This document shows positions 15,520-23,940 of a stretch of DNA of 64,000 nucleotides, one piece after another. The DNA lies in the NCBI RefSeq assembly GCF_024223415.1, contig NZ_CP100500.1; one strand, given 5' to 3'. Position 1 is the first letter of the stretch; the number at the start of each line of letters is the position of its first letter. The notes below the pieces were generated by a model. The model ran no database searches, had not been told where the DNA came from, and saw nothing but the letters and a program-made list of their open reading frames with translations. The DNA is from Escherichia coli (GTDB lineage Bacteria > Pseudomonadota > Gammaproteobacteria > Enterobacterales > Enterobacteriaceae). A program made the position numbers and the translations under genes.

Positions 15520-16038
15520 TTAACCACCAAGACCAATCGCCGAGCGCACGCGGTCCGGGAAGACGTTTTTGCCGTCCTTGCGTTCGATGTGGTTCAGTAA
15601 ATCAATCTCCAGCACCGGACGGTCGTTAATGCTGAGTTTGTAGTAGGTACTCCTGACCGCATAGGTGTGAGACGTGACCTCACCCTGTTTTGCCTCCCCC
15701 GTATCAATTTCCGTCACGCGGCCGCGAAGCTCAATTTCATACAGGTCGCTCTGCTCTTCATCGTTGTAGTACTCACCGACAAAGCGCAGCAGCGTACCGT
15801 CGATCGTGCCGCCGTACTTAAGGAACAGTTCGCGGGTCGGCCCGCCCATGGTGAAACTCGCATCCAGCGCGCCGTCATCCAGACCAAGGTCGATATTCAC
15901 CGCGCCGGCCATACCACCACCGCGATAGGCTTCCGTTTTACGGGTCAGTTTGGGGGGCGTGAAGCCGGTCACCCTGCCAATCTGGTTCACCCCGTCAGTA
16001 AACAGCGTGAACACCCTGAGATTTTTTGGTACGGCCAT
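15520..16038 (-). CDS. FII: tail tube protein, P2 gpFII family
   Basis: 172 aa, the same length as P2 FII. TAATG overlap with the sheath stop. Confidence 0.9.
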   Translation of the reverse strand: MAVPKNLRVFTLFTDGVNQIGRVTGFTPPKLTRKTEAYRGGGMAGAVNIDLGLDDGALDASFTMGGPTRELFLKYGGTIDGTLLRFVGEYYNDEEQSDLYEIELRGRVTEIDTGEAKQGEVTSHTYAVRSTYYKLSINDRPVLEIDLLNHIERKDGKNVFPDRVRSAIGLGG

Positions 16039-17321
16039 TAAGCACCTCCAAGCGTCGCAAATGCAGGACCAAAGAATTCATCAGTAAACGTCTGGTAAAG
16101 TTCCATATCCTCAAGCGGCGGAACGGGCGTGTACTTGTAGCGGATACGCACGCGTCCCTGACGAAGTTCCGTGGTGCTGTTATCCACCACGTCATACCAG
16201 CACTCCGCACCAATGAGACGTCCTGACGTAACCAGCGCATCCAGTTTTGCGCGAATTGCGCTTAACACGTCTTTCACATTAGCAGGGGTCAGCGGGGCAT
16301 CAATCGTTTCAAACTGCGCTTCCGCAATGGAATCAGCCAGCACCTGAGCGGTTCGCGTGTACACCTCAAAGATATACGCCTTCGTTTCCGGCGTACGGTT
16401 GCCCCAGAAGCGGAAACCGTTACGGCAAATGATGGTAGTGATTTCCTTGTTGTTGAGATTGTTGGCATCGCTGTCTTCGGACTGAAGGGACCAGAACACC
16501 GGGCTGGAAATACCCAGCACATTTGTTACCGGCACGTTGGACAGCGATTTATGCCAGCCCTGTTCGTGGTCAATACGTGCACGTAAACCGCAGGCGTACG
16601 CCGCAGCCGGGAAGACCTCATTAGCGCCGGATTTCGGGTTATAGGCGATGAAGTCAGGCCAGAGCAGCATAAGTTCGCGCTCGTTAAATCTGGCGCGGTA
16701 GCTGATTGCATCAGCGGGCTTCTTGCAGTTGTGACAGCCCGCGTAGACAAATGCGCGAAGTTTTTCTGCAATTACACACAGGGATTTTGTGACAGCTTCA
16801 GTATCCAGTCCGGGAGCTGCGATGATGCGCGGACGGTAACCGATGGCATCATCCTGTTCAGCTATCAGAAGTGCATACATACCGGTATAATTACCGTCGC
16901 CATCCGTGCCACCAATGACATACTGGTCCTGCGTTTTGTGTGGGTATACAGGATGTGCATCTTCAGACTCATCAATACCAAAAAATGCCCTGTCTTCAGG
17001 ATCCAGATGACCGAATGATGTAACTCCTGTATCCGGGGCGCCCTGAGAACTGGTATCAGGAACGCGCACCACAATCACCTTCGTGCTCACCTGGTCGGCG
17101 ACAGCCTTAAGCGATTTGTAAAGCGTCCCCTTTGTGCCGGCCTTACCCAGCACATCACTGACGCGGGTCAGCAGTGTGGGTTTGTTCAGCGGGAACAGAG
17201 TTTCATCCGCGTCATCTGCCGTAGCCACAATACCAATAACACTGGAATCCACATCATTAATGGCGGTGGCAAGGCCGGTACTTTCCCTTACGCGCGCACC
17301 ATGAAAGCGTGTTTCACTCAT
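16038..17321 (-). CDS. FI: contractile tail sheath protein, P2 gpFI family
   Basis: MSETRFHGARV...IGIVATADDADETLFPLNKPTLLTRV...AGTKGTLYKSLKAVADQ is colinear with the remembered P2 FI N-terminus. The 49-codon upstream extension in the ORF track is rejected. Confidence 0.9.
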   Translation of the reverse strand: MSETRFHGARVRESTGLATAINDVDSSVIGIVATADDADETLFPLNKPTLLTRVSDVLGKAGTKGTLYKSLKAVADQVSTKVIVVRVPDTSSQGAPDTGVTSFGHLDPEDRAFFGIDESEDAHPVYPHKTQDQYVIGGTDGDGNYTGMYALLIAEQDDAIGYRPRIIAAPGLDTEAVTKSLCVIAEKLRAFVYAGCHNCKKPADAISYRARFNERELMLLWPDFIAYNPKSGANEVFPAAAYACGLRARIDHEQGWHKSLSNVPVTNVLGISSPVFWSLQSEDSDANNLNNKEITTIICRNGFRFWGNRTPETKAYIFEVYTRTAQVLADSIAEAQFETIDAPLTPANVKDVLSAIRAKLDALVTSGRLIGAECWYDVVDNSTTELRQGRVRIRYKYTPVPPLEDMELYQTFTDEFFGPAFATLGGA

Positions 17322-17394
17322 ATGTTTCACCCTTGTCTGGCTGGTTGATTTTGCGTAATCATTACCCACACACGCGGTAATCTCACCCCTTTGA

Positions 17395-17418
17395 TGTTGT
17401 CTCCTGACAGCGACAACA
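17395..17418. promoter_or_regulatory. Ogr/Delta-type late-promoter activator site (TGT-N12-ACA dyad)
   Basis: TGTTGTC-tcctgacagc-GACAACA. The inner TGT (17398-17400) and ACA (17413-17415) are exactly 12 bp apart. It lies in the divergent FI/D intergenic region, about 55 bp upstream of a plausible FI transcription start. Confidence 0.55.
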
Positions 17419-17482
17419 AAACAGCCATTCAACGCCGCTGCGGTGCATGAAACCATTACAGAACGCACCAGGAGAGAACACC

Positions 17483-18574
17483 ATGAAAGAGCTGTCAGTT
17501 ACCGTTCCGTCACCGGATATCGACATCACCATCAACAACAACACACTGGCAAACCTCACAGAGCGACTCATGACGCTGACCCTGACGGATAACCGGGCCT
17601 TTGAGGCAGACCGCGTCACCCTCACCCTTGACGATACGGACGGGCAGTTACAGTTGCCACCACGTGGCGCACGCCTGAGAGTGATGATTGGCTGGCGAGG
17701 AGAATCACTGGTTAACAAGGGCACCTACGTCGTTGATGAGGTTGCGTGGGAAGGACCTCCAGATAAACTGATCATCACCGCCAGCAGCGCAGATTTTCGG
17801 GAAGAGTTCAACGTGAGGCGGGAGGTATCCTGGCACGACGTGACCGTAAAACAGGTTGTGTCAGCCATCGCTCACCGCTACGGCCTGAAGACACAGATAA
17901 GCGAAATCCTCATGGATATCGAAATTGACCACGCTGACCAGACCGAAGAGAGCGATATATCCTTCCTGACCCGCATGGCTGAAATGCTGGGTGCGATTGC
18001 CACCGTAAAAAACGGCAGCCTGTTATTCATTCTGCCGGGTGGCGGAACCGGGCCGGACGGAAGAGCCCTGCCTTCGTTCGCCATTACCCGCAGCAGCGGC
18101 GACAGTCACCGCTTTCGCATTGCTGACCGTGATGCGTATACGGGGGTCCGGGCGCACTGGCTCGATCTGAAGTTCGGGCAAAAGAAAAAAGTGAACGTGA
18201 AGCGACGCAGGGAAGCCGGGAAACAGAAACAGGAGAAGAGCAGCAGCCGGGAGGGTGATTACATGGAAGGCGCGGAAGGGAACGTCTACGTTCTGCGCAG
18301 GACTTACCAGAATGAAGAAACCGCACGACGTGCAGCTGCGGCAAAGTGGCAGGAGTTACAGCGGGGAGCAGCGGCATTCTCCATCACTCTGGCACGGGGT
18401 CGTGCCGACCTGTACCCCGAAATGCACGGCAGGGTAACAGGTTTTAAAAGCGAGGTGGACAATCAGGACTGGATTATTGCCAGGGTGGAGCACATCATAG
18501 ATGAAAGCGGCTTCACCACACAACTGGAGCTGGAAGCGAAAATCCCCGAATGGATAGCAGATTCAGGCGGATAA
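17483..18574 (+). CDS. D: late control/tail protein, P2 gpD family
   Basis: GGAGAG SD. LMTLTLTDNRAFEADRVTLTLDDTDGQLQLPPRGA is the hallmark gpD motif. Confidence 0.85.
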   Translation: MKELSVTVPSPDIDITINNNTLANLTERLMTLTLTDNRAFEADRVTLTLDDTDGQLQLPPRGARLRVMIGWRGESLVNKGTYVVDEVAWEGPPDKLIITASSADFREEFNVRREVSWHDVTVKQVVSAIAHRYGLKTQISEILMDIEIDHADQTEESDISFLTRMAEMLGAIATVKNGSLLFILPGGGTGPDGRALPSFAITRSSGDSHRFRIADRDAYTGVRAHWLDLKFGQKKKVNVKRRREAGKQKQEKSSSREGDYMEGAEGNVYVLRRTYQNEETARRAAAAKWQELQRGAAAFSITLARGRADLYPEMHGRVTGFKSEVDNQDWIIARVEHIIDESGFTTQLELEAKIPEWIADSGG

Positions 18575-18617: not shown

Positions 18618-18869
18618 ATGTTCCGTTGTCCCCTATGCGGTGCATCCGCACGTATCCGCACCAGTCGCAATGAAAATGATTCAGGCACAGTTCGCCTGAA
18701 GTACTACCAGTGCAATAACCTCGAATGCGGGATCGGCTTTACCACACTGGAGGGTTTTAACAAATTCACATCAAAACGCGCCCCGTCGCCGCAGGGTACA
18801 GAGCGGATACCGTGGGAAGATTTTCCGGGATCTCACAGGGGGAATACTCAGATTAATCTTGATATTTAA
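18618..18869 (+). CDS. ogr: late gene transcription activator, Ogr/Delta zinc-finger family
   Basis: MFRCPLCGASARIRTSR...YYQCNNLECGIGFTTLE matches P2 Ogr (MFHCPLCQHAAHARTSR...YHQCQNVNCSATFITYE) with the CxxC...CxxxxC arrangement. Confidence 0.9.
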   Translation: MFRCPLCGASARIRTSRNENDSGTVRLKYYQCNNLECGIGFTTLEGFNKFTSKRAPSPQGTERIPWEDFPGSHRGNTQINLDI

Positions 18870-18918: not shown

Positions 18919-19013
18919 AGATACTTTCCCGCAACCACGGGCAAGTATTTAATTATCCATGATGAAATATGACCTAAATTGTTTTTTGCCCGCCGGAAAG
19001 CGGGCATTTTTTT
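18919..19013 (+). ncRNA. predicted sRNA, A-type copy A0 (directly after ogr)
   Basis: Promoter TTGAGA (18884-18889), 17-bp spacer, TAGATT (18907-18912). Internal hairpin CCCG-caacca-CGGG. Terminator GCCCGC-cggaaa-GCGGGC (18988-19005) followed by a T-run. The 5' end is estimated. Confidence 0.45.
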
Positions 19014-19227
19014 ATTCTTTTGTGGTTATGGGGTCATCAGGAACCACGTGCAGATTATATTTTTGTTTTTTTGGCGTTCCTCCGGCAGCAACGAGTTCAT
19101 CAATAAGACACTGACACGCCTGAACATCCCGGGCATGTCTTAGTTTCACCTTTATTGATTTAACCTTATCCTCACCGGAGGAGAAATGCAGTTCAATCTC
19201 AATATCGTTTCTTCGGAACAATCTCAT
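19012..19227 (-). CDS. hypothetical small protein R1 (71 aa), the only intact copy of a triplicated ORF
   Basis: MRLFRRNDIEIELHFSSGEDKVK.... The start with an SD is conserved in the two decayed copies (AGGAGG in copy 2). The stop abuts the bidirectional terminator. No family recognised. Confidence 0.4.
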   Translation of the reverse strand: MRLFRRNDIEIELHFSSGEDKVKSIKVKLRHARDVQACQCLIDELVAAGGTPKKQKYNLHVVPDDPITTKE

Positions 19228-19321
19228 ACGCCCCCTGAATATATCAGAAATACTAGTATCGAAAAATGAGAAAACAGTTAGACAGGAGAAACATATTAAC
19301 ACAAATCATTTATACCTATAG

Positions 19322-19339
19322 ATGAAATTATAATTTCAT
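19322..19339. promoter_or_regulatory. perfect 18-bp palindrome ATGAAATTATAATTTCAT between divergent R1 and B1
   Basis: Read directly from the sequence. Degenerate versions sit at the same place in unit 2 (~20497) and unit 3 (~21143). Confidence 0.4.
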
Positions 19340-19371
19340 TCATGAATATGATAGATAACTATATTGTGAAC

Positions 19372-19478
19372 AAAATGAAAAATGGCTAAATTAAAAATGG
19401 GCATGGAGGAATGCCCGGTTATCAATATAATGTGACGTAGATCATTGTTTTGCCCGCCGGAGAGCGGGCATTTTTTTT
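19372..19478 (+). ncRNA. predicted sRNA, B-type copy B1
   Basis: -10 TATATT at 19360-19365. Hairpin GGGCAT-ggagga-ATGCCC. Terminator hairpin 19452-19469 followed by T8. Ends are estimated. Confidence 0.35.
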
Positions 19479-19582
19479 GCGCCTGCCATCGAGGCGCCTT
19501 CCCTGGCGCACACAAAGCAGCCCTGATTTTCCATGAAAACTTCAGGGTTGAGCTGCGGGCACAAAGTGAGTAGATTAGCTAC

Positions 19583-19679
19583 GGGTACCTCCCCCTGACA
19601 ACAGGAAGGGTGTCCATTATCCATGATATACAAACGAAAAGTCTTGTTTTTTGCCCGCCGAAGCGCGGGCATTTTTTTA
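19583..19679 (+). ncRNA. predicted sRNA, A-type copy A1 (immediately upstream of hok locus 1)
   Basis: TTGAGC (19548-19553), 17-bp spacer, TAGATT (19571-19576). 5' hairpin around CCUGACAACAGG. Terminator 19653-19670 followed by T7. Confidence 0.45.
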
Positions 19680-19723
19680 TGCATCAGACAAGATACAGCC
19701 CACCCCAACTGACACCTGAAATA

Positions 19724-19752
19724 TTGCCGCAACAAAAAGAAACAGTTAAATT
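19724..19752 (+). promoter_or_regulatory. candidate hok/mok mRNA promoter
   Basis: TTGCCG (19724-19729), 16/17-bp spacer, TTAAAT/TAAATT (19746-19752). The predicted start coincides with GGGUGCCUU (19759-19767), which is complementary to a 3' element (20102-20110). Confidence 0.5.
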
Positions 19753-19794
19753 ACGCGCGGGTGCCTTTCGGCTGATGGCCGGAGGGAAAACCTG

Positions 19795-19864
19795 AAGGCC
19801 GGATGTGGAAAGGCCCCGGAAAACATTTCTGTTTAACCGAGGCCCTAACCGCATTACCTTGACA
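19795..19864 (-). ncRNA. sok: candidate Sok-like antisense RNA (ends approximate)
   Basis: Minus-strand promoter TTGCTC (19899-19894), 17-bp spacer, TAACCT (19876-19871), overlapping the hok SD. The transcript would cover the mok start at 19805, as in R1 hok/sok. No terminator could be resolved. Confidence 0.35.
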
Positions 19865-20038
19865 AGTGAAAGGTTAGCGCCTCTCCGGAAAAGGAGCAAG
19901 TGCTATGTCGCAAAAATCGCTTACGGCCATCACGTTCTGCGTGACGGCAATCCTCATCATCTGGATATTGCACGGTTCGCTGTGCGAAATACGGATGAGC
20001 TTCTGGGGAGCGGAGTTTGCGGCGTTCTTACAATGTAA
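19805..20038 (+). CDS. mok: mok-like overlapping reading frame
   Basis: 77-codon ORF with a GAAGG SD. It starts 100 nt upstream of hok and overlaps almost all of it in another frame, which is the hok/mok architecture. Confidence 0.5.
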   Translation: MERPRKTFLFNRGPNRITLTSERLAPLRKRSKCYVAKIAYGHHVLRDGNPHHLDIARFAVRNTDELLGSGVCGVLTM

Positions 20039-20045
20039 GAAGTAA
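19905..20045 (+). CDS. hok: Hok/Gef-family type I toxin (46 aa)
   Basis: AAGGAG SD. MSQKSLTAITFCVTAILIIWILHGSLCEIRMSFWGAEFAAFLQCKK has one TM plus the SLCE...AAF motif of Hok proteins; closest by memory to HokA. Confidence 0.8.
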   Translation: MSQKSLTAITFCVTAILIIWILHGSLCEIRMSFWGAEFAAFLQCKK

Positions 20046-20134
20046 GGAAACCGCGACGGGGGAGCAATCCCCCGTCAATCGGTTGCCAGGGTAAGGTCGA
20101 TAAGGCACCCTATCTCACAGACATGAACAAACAA

Positions 20135-20167
20135 ACCCGCAGCATAAAAACTGCGGGTTTTCTTTTT
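20135..20167 (+). terminator. intrinsic terminator of hok locus 1
   Basis: ACCCGCAG-cataaaaa-CTGCGGGT followed by TTTTCTTTTT. Confidence 0.7.
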
Positions 20168-20298
20168 GGTGTCCTCACCGACTTGAAACAGTGATCAGAC
20201 TATAAGACAAAGCCCGCAATGTTGCGGGCTTACTCTACCTCTCGAAAATGTGGTCACTGCGTGGACATACGCTGATACAAATCCTTTATATCAATAAA

Positions 20299-20397
20299 TT
20301 AAATCTTTGTTTTTTTCATCAACAATGATTTAACCTTATCCTCACCGGAGGAGAAATGCAGTTCAATCTCAATATCGTTTCTGTGGAACAGCCTCAT
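20299..20397 (-). pseudogene. truncated copy R2 of the small ORF (32 codons)
   Basis: MRLFHRNDIEIELHFSSGEDKVKS is identical in pattern to R1; it then diverges and stops. An AGGAGG SD is retained. Confidence 0.4.
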
Positions 20398-20544
20398 AAG
20401 ACAACCTCCTGAATTCATCAGAAACACAGTCAACTGAAAACCAGAAAGCAGACAAACAGTGGACACACATTAATACAAATCATTTATACCTATAGATGAA
20501 ATTGCAGTTTCATCTATAACATGACAGGTAACAATATTGTGAAA

Positions 20545-20651
20545 AAACTCAAAACTCGTTAGATTAAAGACGGACAGAGCAATGCTACTTTATCAATAAC
20601 ATGTAACCTGTACTTCCTTATTTTGCCCGCCGAAGCACGGGCATTTTTTTT
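20545..20651 (+). ncRNA. predicted sRNA, B-type copy B2 (divergent body)
   Basis: -10 AATATT near 20533. Terminator 20625-20642 followed by T8. The body differs from B1/B3. Confidence 0.3.
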
Positions 20652-20755
20652 GCGCCTGCCATCGAGGCGCCTTCCCTGGCGCACACAAAGCAGCCCTGAT
20701 TTTCCATGAAAACTTCAGGGTTGAGCCAAAAGCACAAAGACAGTAGATTAACCAC

Positions 20756-20849
20756 GGGTGCCTTCCACCTGACAACAGGAAGGGTGTCCAGTATCAATGA
20801 CAGACAACTCACATTGCTGTTTTGCCCGCCGGAAAGCGGGCATTTTTTT
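20756..20849 (+). ncRNA. predicted sRNA, A-type copy A2
   Basis: TTGAGC (20721-20726), 17-bp spacer, TAGATT (20744-20749). Hairpin CCTTCC-acctgacaaca-GGAAGG. Terminator 20824-20841 followed by T7. Confidence 0.45.
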
Positions 20850-20981
20850 ATTCTTTTGTGGTTATTGGGTCATCAGGAACAACATGCAGATTATGCTTTG
20901 ATTTTTTTGGTGTTATTACAGCAGCAACGAGTTTATTAATAAGACACTGACATGCCTGAACATCCCTGACATATCATAATA

Positions 20982-21053
20982 TCACTTTATTTTTTTAGCT
21001 TGTCCTTTCTGGAGCAGAAATATCTCAACATCGTTTCTGTGGAACAACCTCAT
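20982..21053 (-). pseudogene. decayed copy R3 of the small ORF (stop after 23 codons, internal deletions)
   Basis: MRLFHRNDVEIFLLQKGQAKKIK*. Flanking DNA is still alignable by eye to the R1 gene. Confidence 0.35.
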
Positions 21054-21192
21054 TTGCCCTTGAATGTATCATAAATATCAGCATCGGAAAACCAACAGCA
21101 ATACAGAAGAAACATGTTAATGCAAATCACTTATACCTATAGATGAAATTACAGTTTTGTTCATAAATATGATAAGTAACTATATTGTGAAT

Positions 21193-21300
21193 AAAATGAA
21201 AACTAGCTAAATTAAACGTGGGCATGGTGGAATGCCTCGTAATCAATAATACATGATCCGTACTTCCTTGTTTTGCCCGCCGGAAAGCGGGCATTTTTTT
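21193..21300 (+). ncRNA. predicted sRNA, B-type copy B3
   Basis: -10 TATATT at 21181-21186. Hairpin GGGCAT-ggtgga-ATGCC. Terminator 21275-21292 followed by T7. Confidence 0.35.
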
Positions 21301-21404
21301 GGCGGTTACCATCGCCTCACCTTCCTGGTTCACATGAAGCAACCCTGATTTTCCATGAAAACTTCAGGGTTGAGACAAAAGCACAAAGACAGTAGATTAA
21401 CCAC

Positions 21405-21497
21405 GGGTACCTTCCACCTGACAACAGGAAGGCTGTCCAGTATCAATGACAGACAACTCACATTGCTGTTTTGCCCGCCGGAAAGCGGGCTTTTTTT
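21405..21497 (+). ncRNA. predicted sRNA, A-type copy A3
   Basis: TTGAGA (21370-21375), 17-bp spacer, TAGATT (21393-21398). Terminator 21473-21490 followed by T7. Confidence 0.45.
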
Positions 21498-21601
21498 GGC
21501 AGTTATCATAGCCGCACCTTCCTGGCACATATGAAGCAACCCTGATTTTCCATGAAAACTTCAGGGTTGAGACAAAAGCACAAAAACAGTAGATTAACCA
21601 C

Positions 21602-21699
21602 GGGTGCCTGCCACCTGACAACAGGAAGGGTGTCCATTATCCATGATATACAAACGAAAAGTCTTGTCTTTTGCCCGCCAAAGCGCGGGCATTTTTTTA
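21602..21699 (+). ncRNA. predicted sRNA, A-type copy A4 (immediately upstream of hok locus 2)
   Basis: TTGAGA (21567-21572), 17-bp spacer, TAGATT (21590-21595). The 3' half is identical in pattern to A1. Terminator 21673-21690 followed by T7. Confidence 0.45.
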
Positions 21700-21909
21700 T
21701 GCATCAGACAAGATACAGCCCACCCCAACTGACACCTGAAATATTGCCGCAACAAAAAGAAACGGGTGCCTTTCGGCTGATGGCCGGAGGGAAAACCTGA
21801 AGGCCGGATGTGGAAAGGCCCCGGAAAACATCTGTGTTTAACCGAGGCCTGACCCTTCCTACCGTGACAAGTGGAAGGTTAGCGCCTCTTTGTAAAAGGA
21901 GCAAGCGCT

Positions 21910-22050
21910 ATACCGCAAAAAACGATTATTGTTGGCATTTTATGCCTGACAATAACCCTGGTCATCTGGATGGTCCACGATTCGTTATGTGAATTCAGCT
22001 TTGATATCTGGGGAGCGCGTTTTGCGGCGTTCTTGCAGTGTAAACCGTAA
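21910..22050 (+). pseudogene. hok: hok-family toxin gene with ATG>ATA start and deleted promoter
   Basis: (I)PQKTIIVGILCLTITLVIWMVHDSLCEFSFDIWGARFAAFLQCKP. The first codon is ATA where locus 1 has ATG. A 16-bp deletion removes the -10 element present in locus 1. Confidence 0.65.
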
Positions 22051-22200
22051 GAAACCGCAGCGGGGGAGAAATTCCCCGCTATCCGGTTGTTGGGGTGGGC
22101 CGATATGGCGCCCTTTCCCTGTAGAGACAAAACAAAAAACCAGATTTGCCCGCCATTGAGAGGGCTTTTTTGTCACCCTCACCAGTGAGGGCATCATCAT

Positions 22201-22422
22201 TCAGAGGCGCGTAAGCCACCCGGCGTTAACATCCTGCCTGTCAACCCTGGCCGCAGAGTCTGAACGGCAGGTACCGGAAGGAGTACCAAAAACATCCCTG
22301 ACAAGTTCCGCCACCTTCCCGATATCATCAGGTGTCACATTCCTCACCTCGGCAGTGATCCGTGGCGTACCATCATCGTTAACAAGAGTGGCTTTAAAGC
22401 TGGTGCGAAGGGAAAACAACAT
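22201..22422 (-). CDS. hypothetical small protein (~73 aa)
   Basis: GGGAGGGG SD upstream of clustered ATGs. No family recognised. Not part of the serS region as I remember K-12. Confidence 0.3.
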   Translation of the reverse strand: MLFSLRTSFKATLVNDDGTPRITAEVRNVTPDDIGKVAELVRDVFGTPSGTCRSDSAARVDRQDVNAGWLTRL

Positions 22423-22626
22423 CAACATCCCCTCCCTTTGGTTCGTTGCACTGACGGCACGACACCATCAGGAAAAAGAAAAGCCCACAACGTCAGTATT
22501 GTGGACTTTTTTCTTCAAAGATGGACATTATCTGGACACATGAAAATAAAATCCATTTATTTTCATATAGTTAAGTACCATGCAAAAGCGCCCGCAGGCG
22601 CTTTTTAGATTCAGAAAAATTAGGTA

Positions 22627-23940
<1,314 letters not shown>

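Follow-up and report, generated by a model that had tools for sequence, protein, structure and literature searches.

A degenerate hok/sok-type locus, probably a pseudogene with an unmutated antisense side, in the cargo of a P2-like prophage of Escherichia coli

Genomic context and family of the two hok loci

The right end of a P2-like prophage was identified in the window (the whole 64,000-nucleotide stretch of E. coli DNA analysed here), with gpD at 17447-18574 followed by ogr at 18618-18869. Between ogr and serS lies ~3.7 kb of repeat-rich, mostly non-coding DNA that contains both hok loci; beyond this stretch the chromosome continues with serS (22627-23919, minus strand), followed by rarA, lolA and ftsK. 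Homology to E. coli K-12 is found only from 22584 onward, where it restarts at the serS terminator, and therefore all DNA to the left of 22584 is inserted. The tail sheath gene lies on the minus strand, divergent from the plus-strand gpD and ogr genes (window 16038-18574), an orientation that departs from the P2 gene order. The closest sequenced phages bearing this hok family were P88-like (Xuanwuvirus).

The two hok/sok-type loci, here locus 1 and locus 2, are paralogues and can be aligned from ~280 bp upstream of the transcript to the transcript 3' end, the transcript body of locus 2 being ~82% identical to that of locus 1. Locus 1 (19724-20168, plus strand) served as the intact reference and was delimited by sequence, family alignment, terminator scan and fold. 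Its hok promoter consists of a -35 element TTGCCG (19724-19729) and a -10 element TAAATT (19747-19752) with a 17-nt spacer, placing the transcription start at ~19759 on the plus strand. The hok frame runs on the same strand from ATG 19905-19907 to a stop at 20045, followed by the 3' element AAGGCACCC (20102-20110) and a terminator detected by the terminator scan (20133-20160). Locus 1 thereby has the layout of an ~400-nt hok mRNA with a sense promoter, which locus 2, with its -10 deleted, does not. In RefSeq, a Hok/Gef protein (WP_000078913.1) is annotated at locus 1 and there is no annotation at locus 2.

The hok2 frame comprises 46 uninterrupted codons from an ATA (21910-22050, plus strand), ending in the stop codon TAA at 22048-22050. 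Searches against Pfam PF01848 (HOK_GEF; cut-off 22) gave 29.0 bits for Hok1 and 22.6 bits for Hok2, the latter with Met assumed at position 1, and PHROG 251 ("MokW-like host killing") matched Hok1 with an E value of 8.5e-22 and Hok2 with 2.1e-17. The NCBIfam HokA model (NF007290) gave 30.7 bits for Hok1 and 39.5 bits for Hok2, both missing its cut-off of 89; HokA is the closest named type, but neither locus is a HokA locus. A canonical start was not present in hok2, and translation from the next in-frame ATG (21970) would give a 26-aa C-terminal fragment only. Mok-type frames with GTG starts were seen in both loci (77 codons from GTG 19805 and 60 codons from GTG 21810). The mok-equivalent frame measured merely 10-21 codons in five other family loci; being unconserved in the sampled family, a mok frame was dropped as an additional hallmark.

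A protein search with the locus-2 frame identified an intact relative, P0002, a 91% identical protein on 119 contigs, which is encoded directly after ogr in P2-like prophages adjoining copA (L004-L011). Complete genomes supplied further family loci, each immediately downstream of ogr or at the end of a prophage; their sites were serS, flk, tRNA-Leu/pgsA and ytfP, with one locus in a lambdoid setting. The protein P0001 (98% identical, serS-adjacent) was considered as an intact orthologue and rejected, as the underlying DNA (L003) shows both the ATA and the deletion of locus 2, and the annotation had taken ATA as Met.

A 75-aa ORF on the minus strand (22201-22428) lies between hok2 and serS; it has no RefSeq annotation and gave no match in Pfam or PHROG. 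An ORF of 73-75 aa is found in the same place after hok in the prophages at copA (L004-L011) and at serS (L028, L030), the DNA there being collinear with the window.

Loss of the hok2 promoter and start codon

The family alignment comprised 14 distinct sequences, including 10 intact loci and locus-2 alleles. The 10 intact loci derive from six chromosomal integration sites and have otherwise unrelated upstream sequences. All 10 have a -35 element ATTGC[C/G] followed by 17 nt, a -10 element TA[A/G/C]ATT and then 7 nt to the G of GGG[T/C]GCC, and all 10 have an ATG start. In locus 2, the -35 element TTGCCG survives without a -10 partner (21744-21749, plus strand; ATTGC is invariant in the 14 family sequences). 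The alignment located the junction of a 15-bp deletion at 21763-21764 on the plus strand, where the sequence AAAAAGAAAC is joined directly to GGGTGCC. The 15 bp absent from locus 2 are AGTTAAATTACGCGC (19744-19758 of locus 1), or the same stretch with the register shifted by one C, and they represent the -10 box TAAATT plus the spacer to the transcription start. The first-pass annotation of this DNA had reported that 16 bp including the -10 were missing; loss of the -10 was confirmed, while the length came down to 15 bp, one G having been counted twice. The ATA that it read at the start position is present in the sequence (21910-21912, versus ATG 19905-19907 in locus 1) and is preceded, 8 nt before it, by a family-conserved Shine-Dalgarno sequence AAGGAG (21896-21901, plus strand).

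Both the 15-bp gap and the ATA were confined to locus-2 alleles. Since the -10 stretch and the ATG are kept in all 10 intact relatives, both lesions of locus 2 are derived, which agrees with the earlier view that the toxin side has been inactivated. The gap is therefore a deletion in locus 2; the converse, an insertion in locus 1, had been offered as a way in which that view might fall, and it failed because 10/10 intact relatives retain the stretch. The ATA arose from ATG via one transition.

No replacement promoter was found in a plus-strand promoter scan across the junction. The fit of the family promoters to the sigma-70 consensus is poor (8/12 for the hok1 promoter and 6/12 for the sok promoters) and the consensus scan listed neither, so that the promoters were identified by their conservation in the family and by positional homology. 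The top sigma-70-like match of the region, TTGTCA-16-AATAAT (10/12), is on the minus strand at 21925-21952, inside the hok2 frame; it is probably fortuitous, as a near-identical string is present in the intact locus L004. Upstream of locus 2, the neighbouring repeat unit ends in a strong intrinsic terminator (TGCCCGCCAAAGCGCGGGCA followed by a T-run; 21672-21698, plus strand; terminator scan and sequence). This 7-bp, GC-rich terminator lies 70 bp upstream and insulates locus 2 from read-through.

The former hok2 mRNA and its closing helix

The former hok2 mRNA body extends on the plus strand from the +1-equivalent GGGTGCC to a degenerate terminator (21764-22171), as judged by Rfam, identity to locus 1 and fold. 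The Rfam sok model (RF01794) aligned to 21764-21921 in locus 2 with 48.1 bits (E 1.2e-8) and to 19759-19918 in locus 1 with 46.2 bits (E ~1e-8); both matches are full-length (model 1-157) and neither reaches the gathering score of 59 bits. The 5' closing element, of the tac type (GGGTGCC, 21764-21770, plus strand), pairs with 22107-22113 in the MFE fold. A Sok-target (sokT-type) hairpin, GAGGC...GCCTC (21844-21888, plus strand), was recognised by consensus fold, alignment and Rfam alignment, and at its apex lies the patch that is hypervariable in the family, with invariant sequence on both sides. Further downstream on this strand are a conserved GC-rich 3'-UTR hairpin (22058-22081; alignment, fold and terminator scan) and an fbi-type 3' closing element, ATGGCGCCC (22105-22113).

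This 3' element had been called degraded in the first-pass annotation. It does differ from AAGGCACCC of locus 1, but the intact loci L004 and L009 carry exactly ATGGCGCCC, and the 5' end of L009, GGGCGCC, is its perfect complement (a C/G covariation). The closing helix in the MFE folds has 7 pairs including one G-U, the same in locus 2 and in intact L004. ATGGCGCCC is thus the native 3' element of the lineage of locus 2 and has not been degraded, and in the MFE fold locus 2 retains the complementary tac and fbi closing elements of hok/sok. A lesion at the 3' end was identified in the terminator, GCCC-10 nt-GGGC plus T6 (22148-22171, plus strand; comparison with L004 and fold), the stem of which is weakened to 4 bp versus 6 bp in intact L004 (GCCCGC/GCGGGC). 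The terminator scan found no terminator in locus 2, though it detected that of locus 1.

Upstream and as far as ~68 nt into the transcript, locus 1, locus 2 and L004 are nearly identical. Locus 2 then has a target-hairpin region of its own, whereas the type seen in L004 returns in its coding region and 3' UTR. In addition, window 20820-22549 is collinear with the entire post-ogr cargo of L004 (87.9%). Locus 2 appears from these comparisons to be mosaic in origin.

The antisense side

The putative sok2 promoter lies on the minus strand, with a -10 element TAACCT (21876-21881, plus-strand string aggtta; invariant in the 14 family sequences and at the Rfam sok position) and a -35 element TTGCTC (21899-21904, plus-strand string gagcaa; family alignment) that overlaps the complement of the hok Shine-Dalgarno sequence. 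Spacing of the two strings is 17 bp in both loci (locus 1 copies at 19871-19876 and 19894-19899), TTGCTC-17-TAACCT is invariant or nearly so across the 14 family sequences, and from CAAGTGG up to the start codon locus 2 and intact L004 have the same sequence. The antisense promoter is therefore intact and spaced as in locus 1, just as had been proposed, and it is identical to that of L004. Its position also matches that of the sok promoter of plasmid R1.

The predicted Sok2 RNA is ~55-57 nt long (21813-21869, minus strand; fold, z = -2.6 to -4.5), with deduced ends. For both loci the predicted Sok starts ~7 nt past the -10 and consists of a single-stranded 5' tail of ~17-19 nt, one hairpin and UUUCC. 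In this model locus 2 would keep the antisense promoter and the tail-plus-hairpin RNA typical of hok/sok, and Sok2 RNA is probably still made.

Distribution and decay of the locus-2 allele

The locus-2 allele was found at ≥99% identity in 26/5426 complete E. coli genomes, and there were no copies of intermediate identity. Its exact 46-aa product, annotated as Hok/Gef, is present on ≥1000 public contigs (1668 blocks in the index). Every locus-2 copy read at the DNA level had the deletion and all but one had the ATA; among further public contigs that were read, the deletion was found in 7/7 and the ATA in 6/7. At the six sampled places of the 46-aa product, and in L003, both lesions were present throughout, and hence the Hok/Gef annotations there read ATA as Met. 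As the same allele occurs in 26 complete genomes and in further contigs, the lesions are not an assembly artefact.

Two nonsense mutations were identified among the alleles: L11* (21941 T>G; alleles L026 and L027) and W34* (22011 G>A; allele L024 and strain GF4), the latter giving a 33-aa product, P0005, on 176 contigs. The W34* allele of GF4 (L012/L020) also has an insertion of IS421 (IS4 family) in the 3' UTR, after 22076. Missense changes comprised V22L (L003) and the variants I15K, G35E and A36E (records P0007, P0009 and P0011), and in allele L025 the 5' closing element is altered by G>A at 21766. In most alleles the 46-codon frame is still uninterrupted. A different kind of change was seen in L034 (GCA_020594835.1), which carries a ~75-bp hok1-type conversion tract (~21855-21930) that restores the ATG, leaves the promoter deletion in place and turns the Sok-tail target into a hybrid sequence. 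We read this allele as direct evidence of recombination between paralogous hok loci.

An open frame in the window and in most alleles, together with an intact Shine-Dalgarno sequence, target hairpin and closing helix and the many GenBank records in which Hok/Gef is annotated with ATA as Met, could be taken to indicate that hok2 is a weakly functional toxin, expressed by read-through or cryptic transcription and inefficient initiation at ATA and held in check by Sok2. AUA starts in E. coli support ~0.1-3% of the initiation seen with AUG (bioRxiv 10.1101/063800), and the ATA by itself would be leaky. However, the -10 is deleted, no substitute promoter was seen, the terminator 70 bp upstream stands in the way of read-through, and a read-through transcript would be without the native 5' end that the closing helix requires. 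The two independent nonsense mutations, the IS insertion and the several missense changes in the population, as well as the lack of any RefSeq annotation, also speak against this reading, which we regard as very improbable. With the promoter loss and the nonsense alleles added to the ATA, the hok2 frame is evidently not maintained, and hok2 would be essentially neither transcribed nor translated.

Repeat units and mobility of the array

The region from ogr to hok2 (18984-21700) is composed of reshuffled repeat modules, namely 18984-19675 and the partial copies 20314-20848 and 20820-21694. A unit of ~175 nt occurs in four copies (19502-19675, 20675-20848, 21324-21497 and 21521-21694), two of which contain a promoter-like TTGAGA-17-TAGATT in the scan (21370-21398 and 21567-21595). 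A strong terminator, TGCCCGCC...GCGGGCATTTTTTT, closes every unit, and the RNA predicted per unit is ~95 nt long, made up of a hairpin at the 5' end, a single-stranded linker and this terminator. By sequence the 175-nt units have the appearance of a multicopy family of sRNA genes within the post-ogr cargo; Rfam searches with them returned nothing beyond terminator-like noise. They were also considered as internally deleted hok loci, an idea rejected since they share with hok no more than motifs of 9-16 nt, namely ACGGGTGCCT and the type of terminator. The published prophage Pas sRNAs were likewise set apart by their description, Pas being located in lambdoid prophages and the text of that paper making no link to such units.

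In strain SCU-115 (L023) the same phage is present at zapB, with an array that is collinear to window 22606 minus window 19680-20326, the segment with hok1. Occurrence of the same array at zapB indicates that the array travels with the phage. Loss of hok1 in SCU-115 is consistent with unequal crossover between repeated modules, and the modules in 18984-21700 allow such a crossover to explain why hok1 is present here and absent there.

The arrangement might alternatively have arisen in two steps, locus 2 being what is left of an earlier, independent P2-like prophage at serS into whose att the hok1 prophage later integrated. Collinearity of 20820-22549 with the cargo of a copA prophage that has a single module (L004) is what such a history would leave, and two intact hok loci in tandem between ogr and serS do occur in other strains (L013). 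An att search for stacked prophage remnants, however, gave a sole copy of the serS-terminator att, at 22585-22606, and no internal copy between the modules. The array of SCU-115, at zapB and without hok1, moves with the phage, and presence or absence of hok1 is accounted for by unequal crossover. The idea of stacked remnants was rejected on this basis, and we hold an older prophage relic to be highly unlikely. The P2-like prophage of the window is inserted at the serS terminator.

Specificity of Sok2

In plasmid R1, binding of Sok to its target begins via the 5' tail. The predicted Sok2 differs from Sok1 at 10/57 positions, 8 of which fall in the first 20 nt, i.e. in the 5' tail, and the 3' 38 nt contain only 2 differences. 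Predicted pairing of the tail with the hok1 leader was -19.7 kcal/mol for Sok2 versus -32.0 kcal/mol for the cognate Sok1, and that of the full duplex with hok1 was -82 versus -114 kcal/mol. With its divergent 5' tail, Sok2 would be a poor partner for hok1 mRNA in the recognition step; the duplex is still predicted to be thermodynamically strong overall, and there may be some cross-reaction. The hypervariable target of the tail in the family is as would be expected of a specificity determinant.

Matching targets for Sok2 were searched for in several collections. In 5426 complete E. coli genomes, no other loci with ≥90% identity to an 87-nt Sok2 target query were found. With the whole of locus 2 as query, identities were ≤81.5% in PLSDB plasmids and ≤78.7% in phage records, with no target match of ≥90% in either. 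Megablast of the phage records gave no match, family members being recovered only by the distant mode at ≤79% identity.

The first-pass annotation had suggested that a retained antitoxin promoter could confer protection in trans against locus 1 or incoming hok plasmids. Selection would then have kept Sok2 as an orphan antidote against hok1 or against hok mRNAs arriving on plasmids or phages, as a form of anti-addiction or immunity. In all alleles that were read the sok2 promoter and RNA are indeed free of mutations, whereas nonsense mutations gather in the toxin frame, and the near-identity of the 3' 38 nt to Sok1 and the strength of the heterologous duplex point the same way. Against this, the 0/7 independent point changes that fell in the 92 bp of the sok promoter and Sok RNA (481 bp surveyed) compare with an expectation of 1.3 (P ~0.23), and n=7 gives the comparison almost no power; the lack of change in sok2 appears to be what chance would produce and carries no sign of selection. 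Since the tail is mismatched at 8 of 20 nt in a part that is hypervariable in the family, the E. coli genomes, PLSDB and the phage records yielded no intact hok whose target matches, retention is at chance level and SCU-115 has locus 2 without hok1, trans-protection is unsupported. A protective role is unlikely, and selection as an orphan antidote is a reading to which we assign a low probability.

Discussion

We consider it likely that locus 2 is a pseudogenised copy of a type I toxin/antisense module encoding a 46-aa Hok-family protein, carried as cargo after ogr in a P2-like (P88-like) prophage, with an antisense side that is merely unmutated so far. The toxin side is disabled by three derived lesions, the 15-bp deletion of the -10, the change of ATG to ATA and the weakened terminator. 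Retention of sok2 would follow from too little time and too small a mutational target, and its promoter overlaps sequence that was under constraint until recently, namely the target hairpin and the Shine-Dalgarno sequence of hok; an antidote role under selection would not be needed to account for it. A more adventurous version, in which Sok2 is a selected orphan antisense RNA that provides immunity against superinfecting P2-like phages or plasmids with a cognate hok, or has been recruited as a trans-acting sRNA, with the dead hok2 frame serving as a recombination reservoir as L034 suggests, has in our view a very low probability.

The mechanism of plasmid R1 hok/sok (parB) is known from work of Gerdes, Thisted and Franch. 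Like R1 parB, locus 2 has a tac-type 5' end, a target hairpin, a sok promoter that overlaps the surroundings of the hok Shine-Dalgarno sequence, an fbi-type element and a terminator, as well as a predicted Sok of a 5' single-stranded tail and one hairpin; its alignment to the Rfam sok model is full-length. Unlike R1 parB, the loci described here are prophage-borne, score below the Rfam gathering threshold (48.1 and 46.2 versus 59) and belong to a family in which mok is unconserved in the sample.

The chromosome of E. coli K-12 carries the loci hokA-E, and degenerate chromosomal hok/sok loci of E. coli were reportedly described by Pedersen and Gerdes in 1999. Degenerate and intact hok loci coexist among enteric strains (PMC2887945). 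Locus 2 resembles these chromosomal loci in being decayed in some strains with intact copies elsewhere, and in the design of a long mRNA closed by 5'-3' pairing with Sok encoded upstream of the toxin start. It differs from them in its lesions, which are a small deletion and a start-codon transition and not an IS or a large rearrangement (IS421 being found in one allele), and in being prophage cargo of a 46-aa subfamily and not part of the core chromosome.

A functional prophage-borne module, hokW-sokW of the Stx prophage Sp5, in which sok has its own promoter, has been reported (PMC8621323). Like hokW-sokW, the loci described here are type I modules carried by a prophage, with Hok ORFs that match PHROG 251, and locus-2 DNA is 75-79% identical to Stx and P2-like phage records. 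HokW, however, has 51 aa and belongs to a functional module in a lambdoid phage, whereas the frame of locus 2 has 46 codons, lies after ogr in a P2-like prophage and is a pseudogene.

Locus 2 is a fresh instance of the known decay of redundant hok/sok copies, and its biological importance is small. It bears on annotation, as GenBank/TPA records (P0004, P0001) count it as an intact Hok/Gef and RefSeq omits it, which makes counts of type I toxins annotation-dependent. For the 46-aa Hok subfamily that P2-like prophages carry after ogr, comparison across the family defines both promoters, that of hok and that of sok, together with the hypervariable Sok-tail patch. The alleles, finally, record unequal crossover and gene conversion among tandem hok modules, a plausible route to new toxin/antisense specificities.
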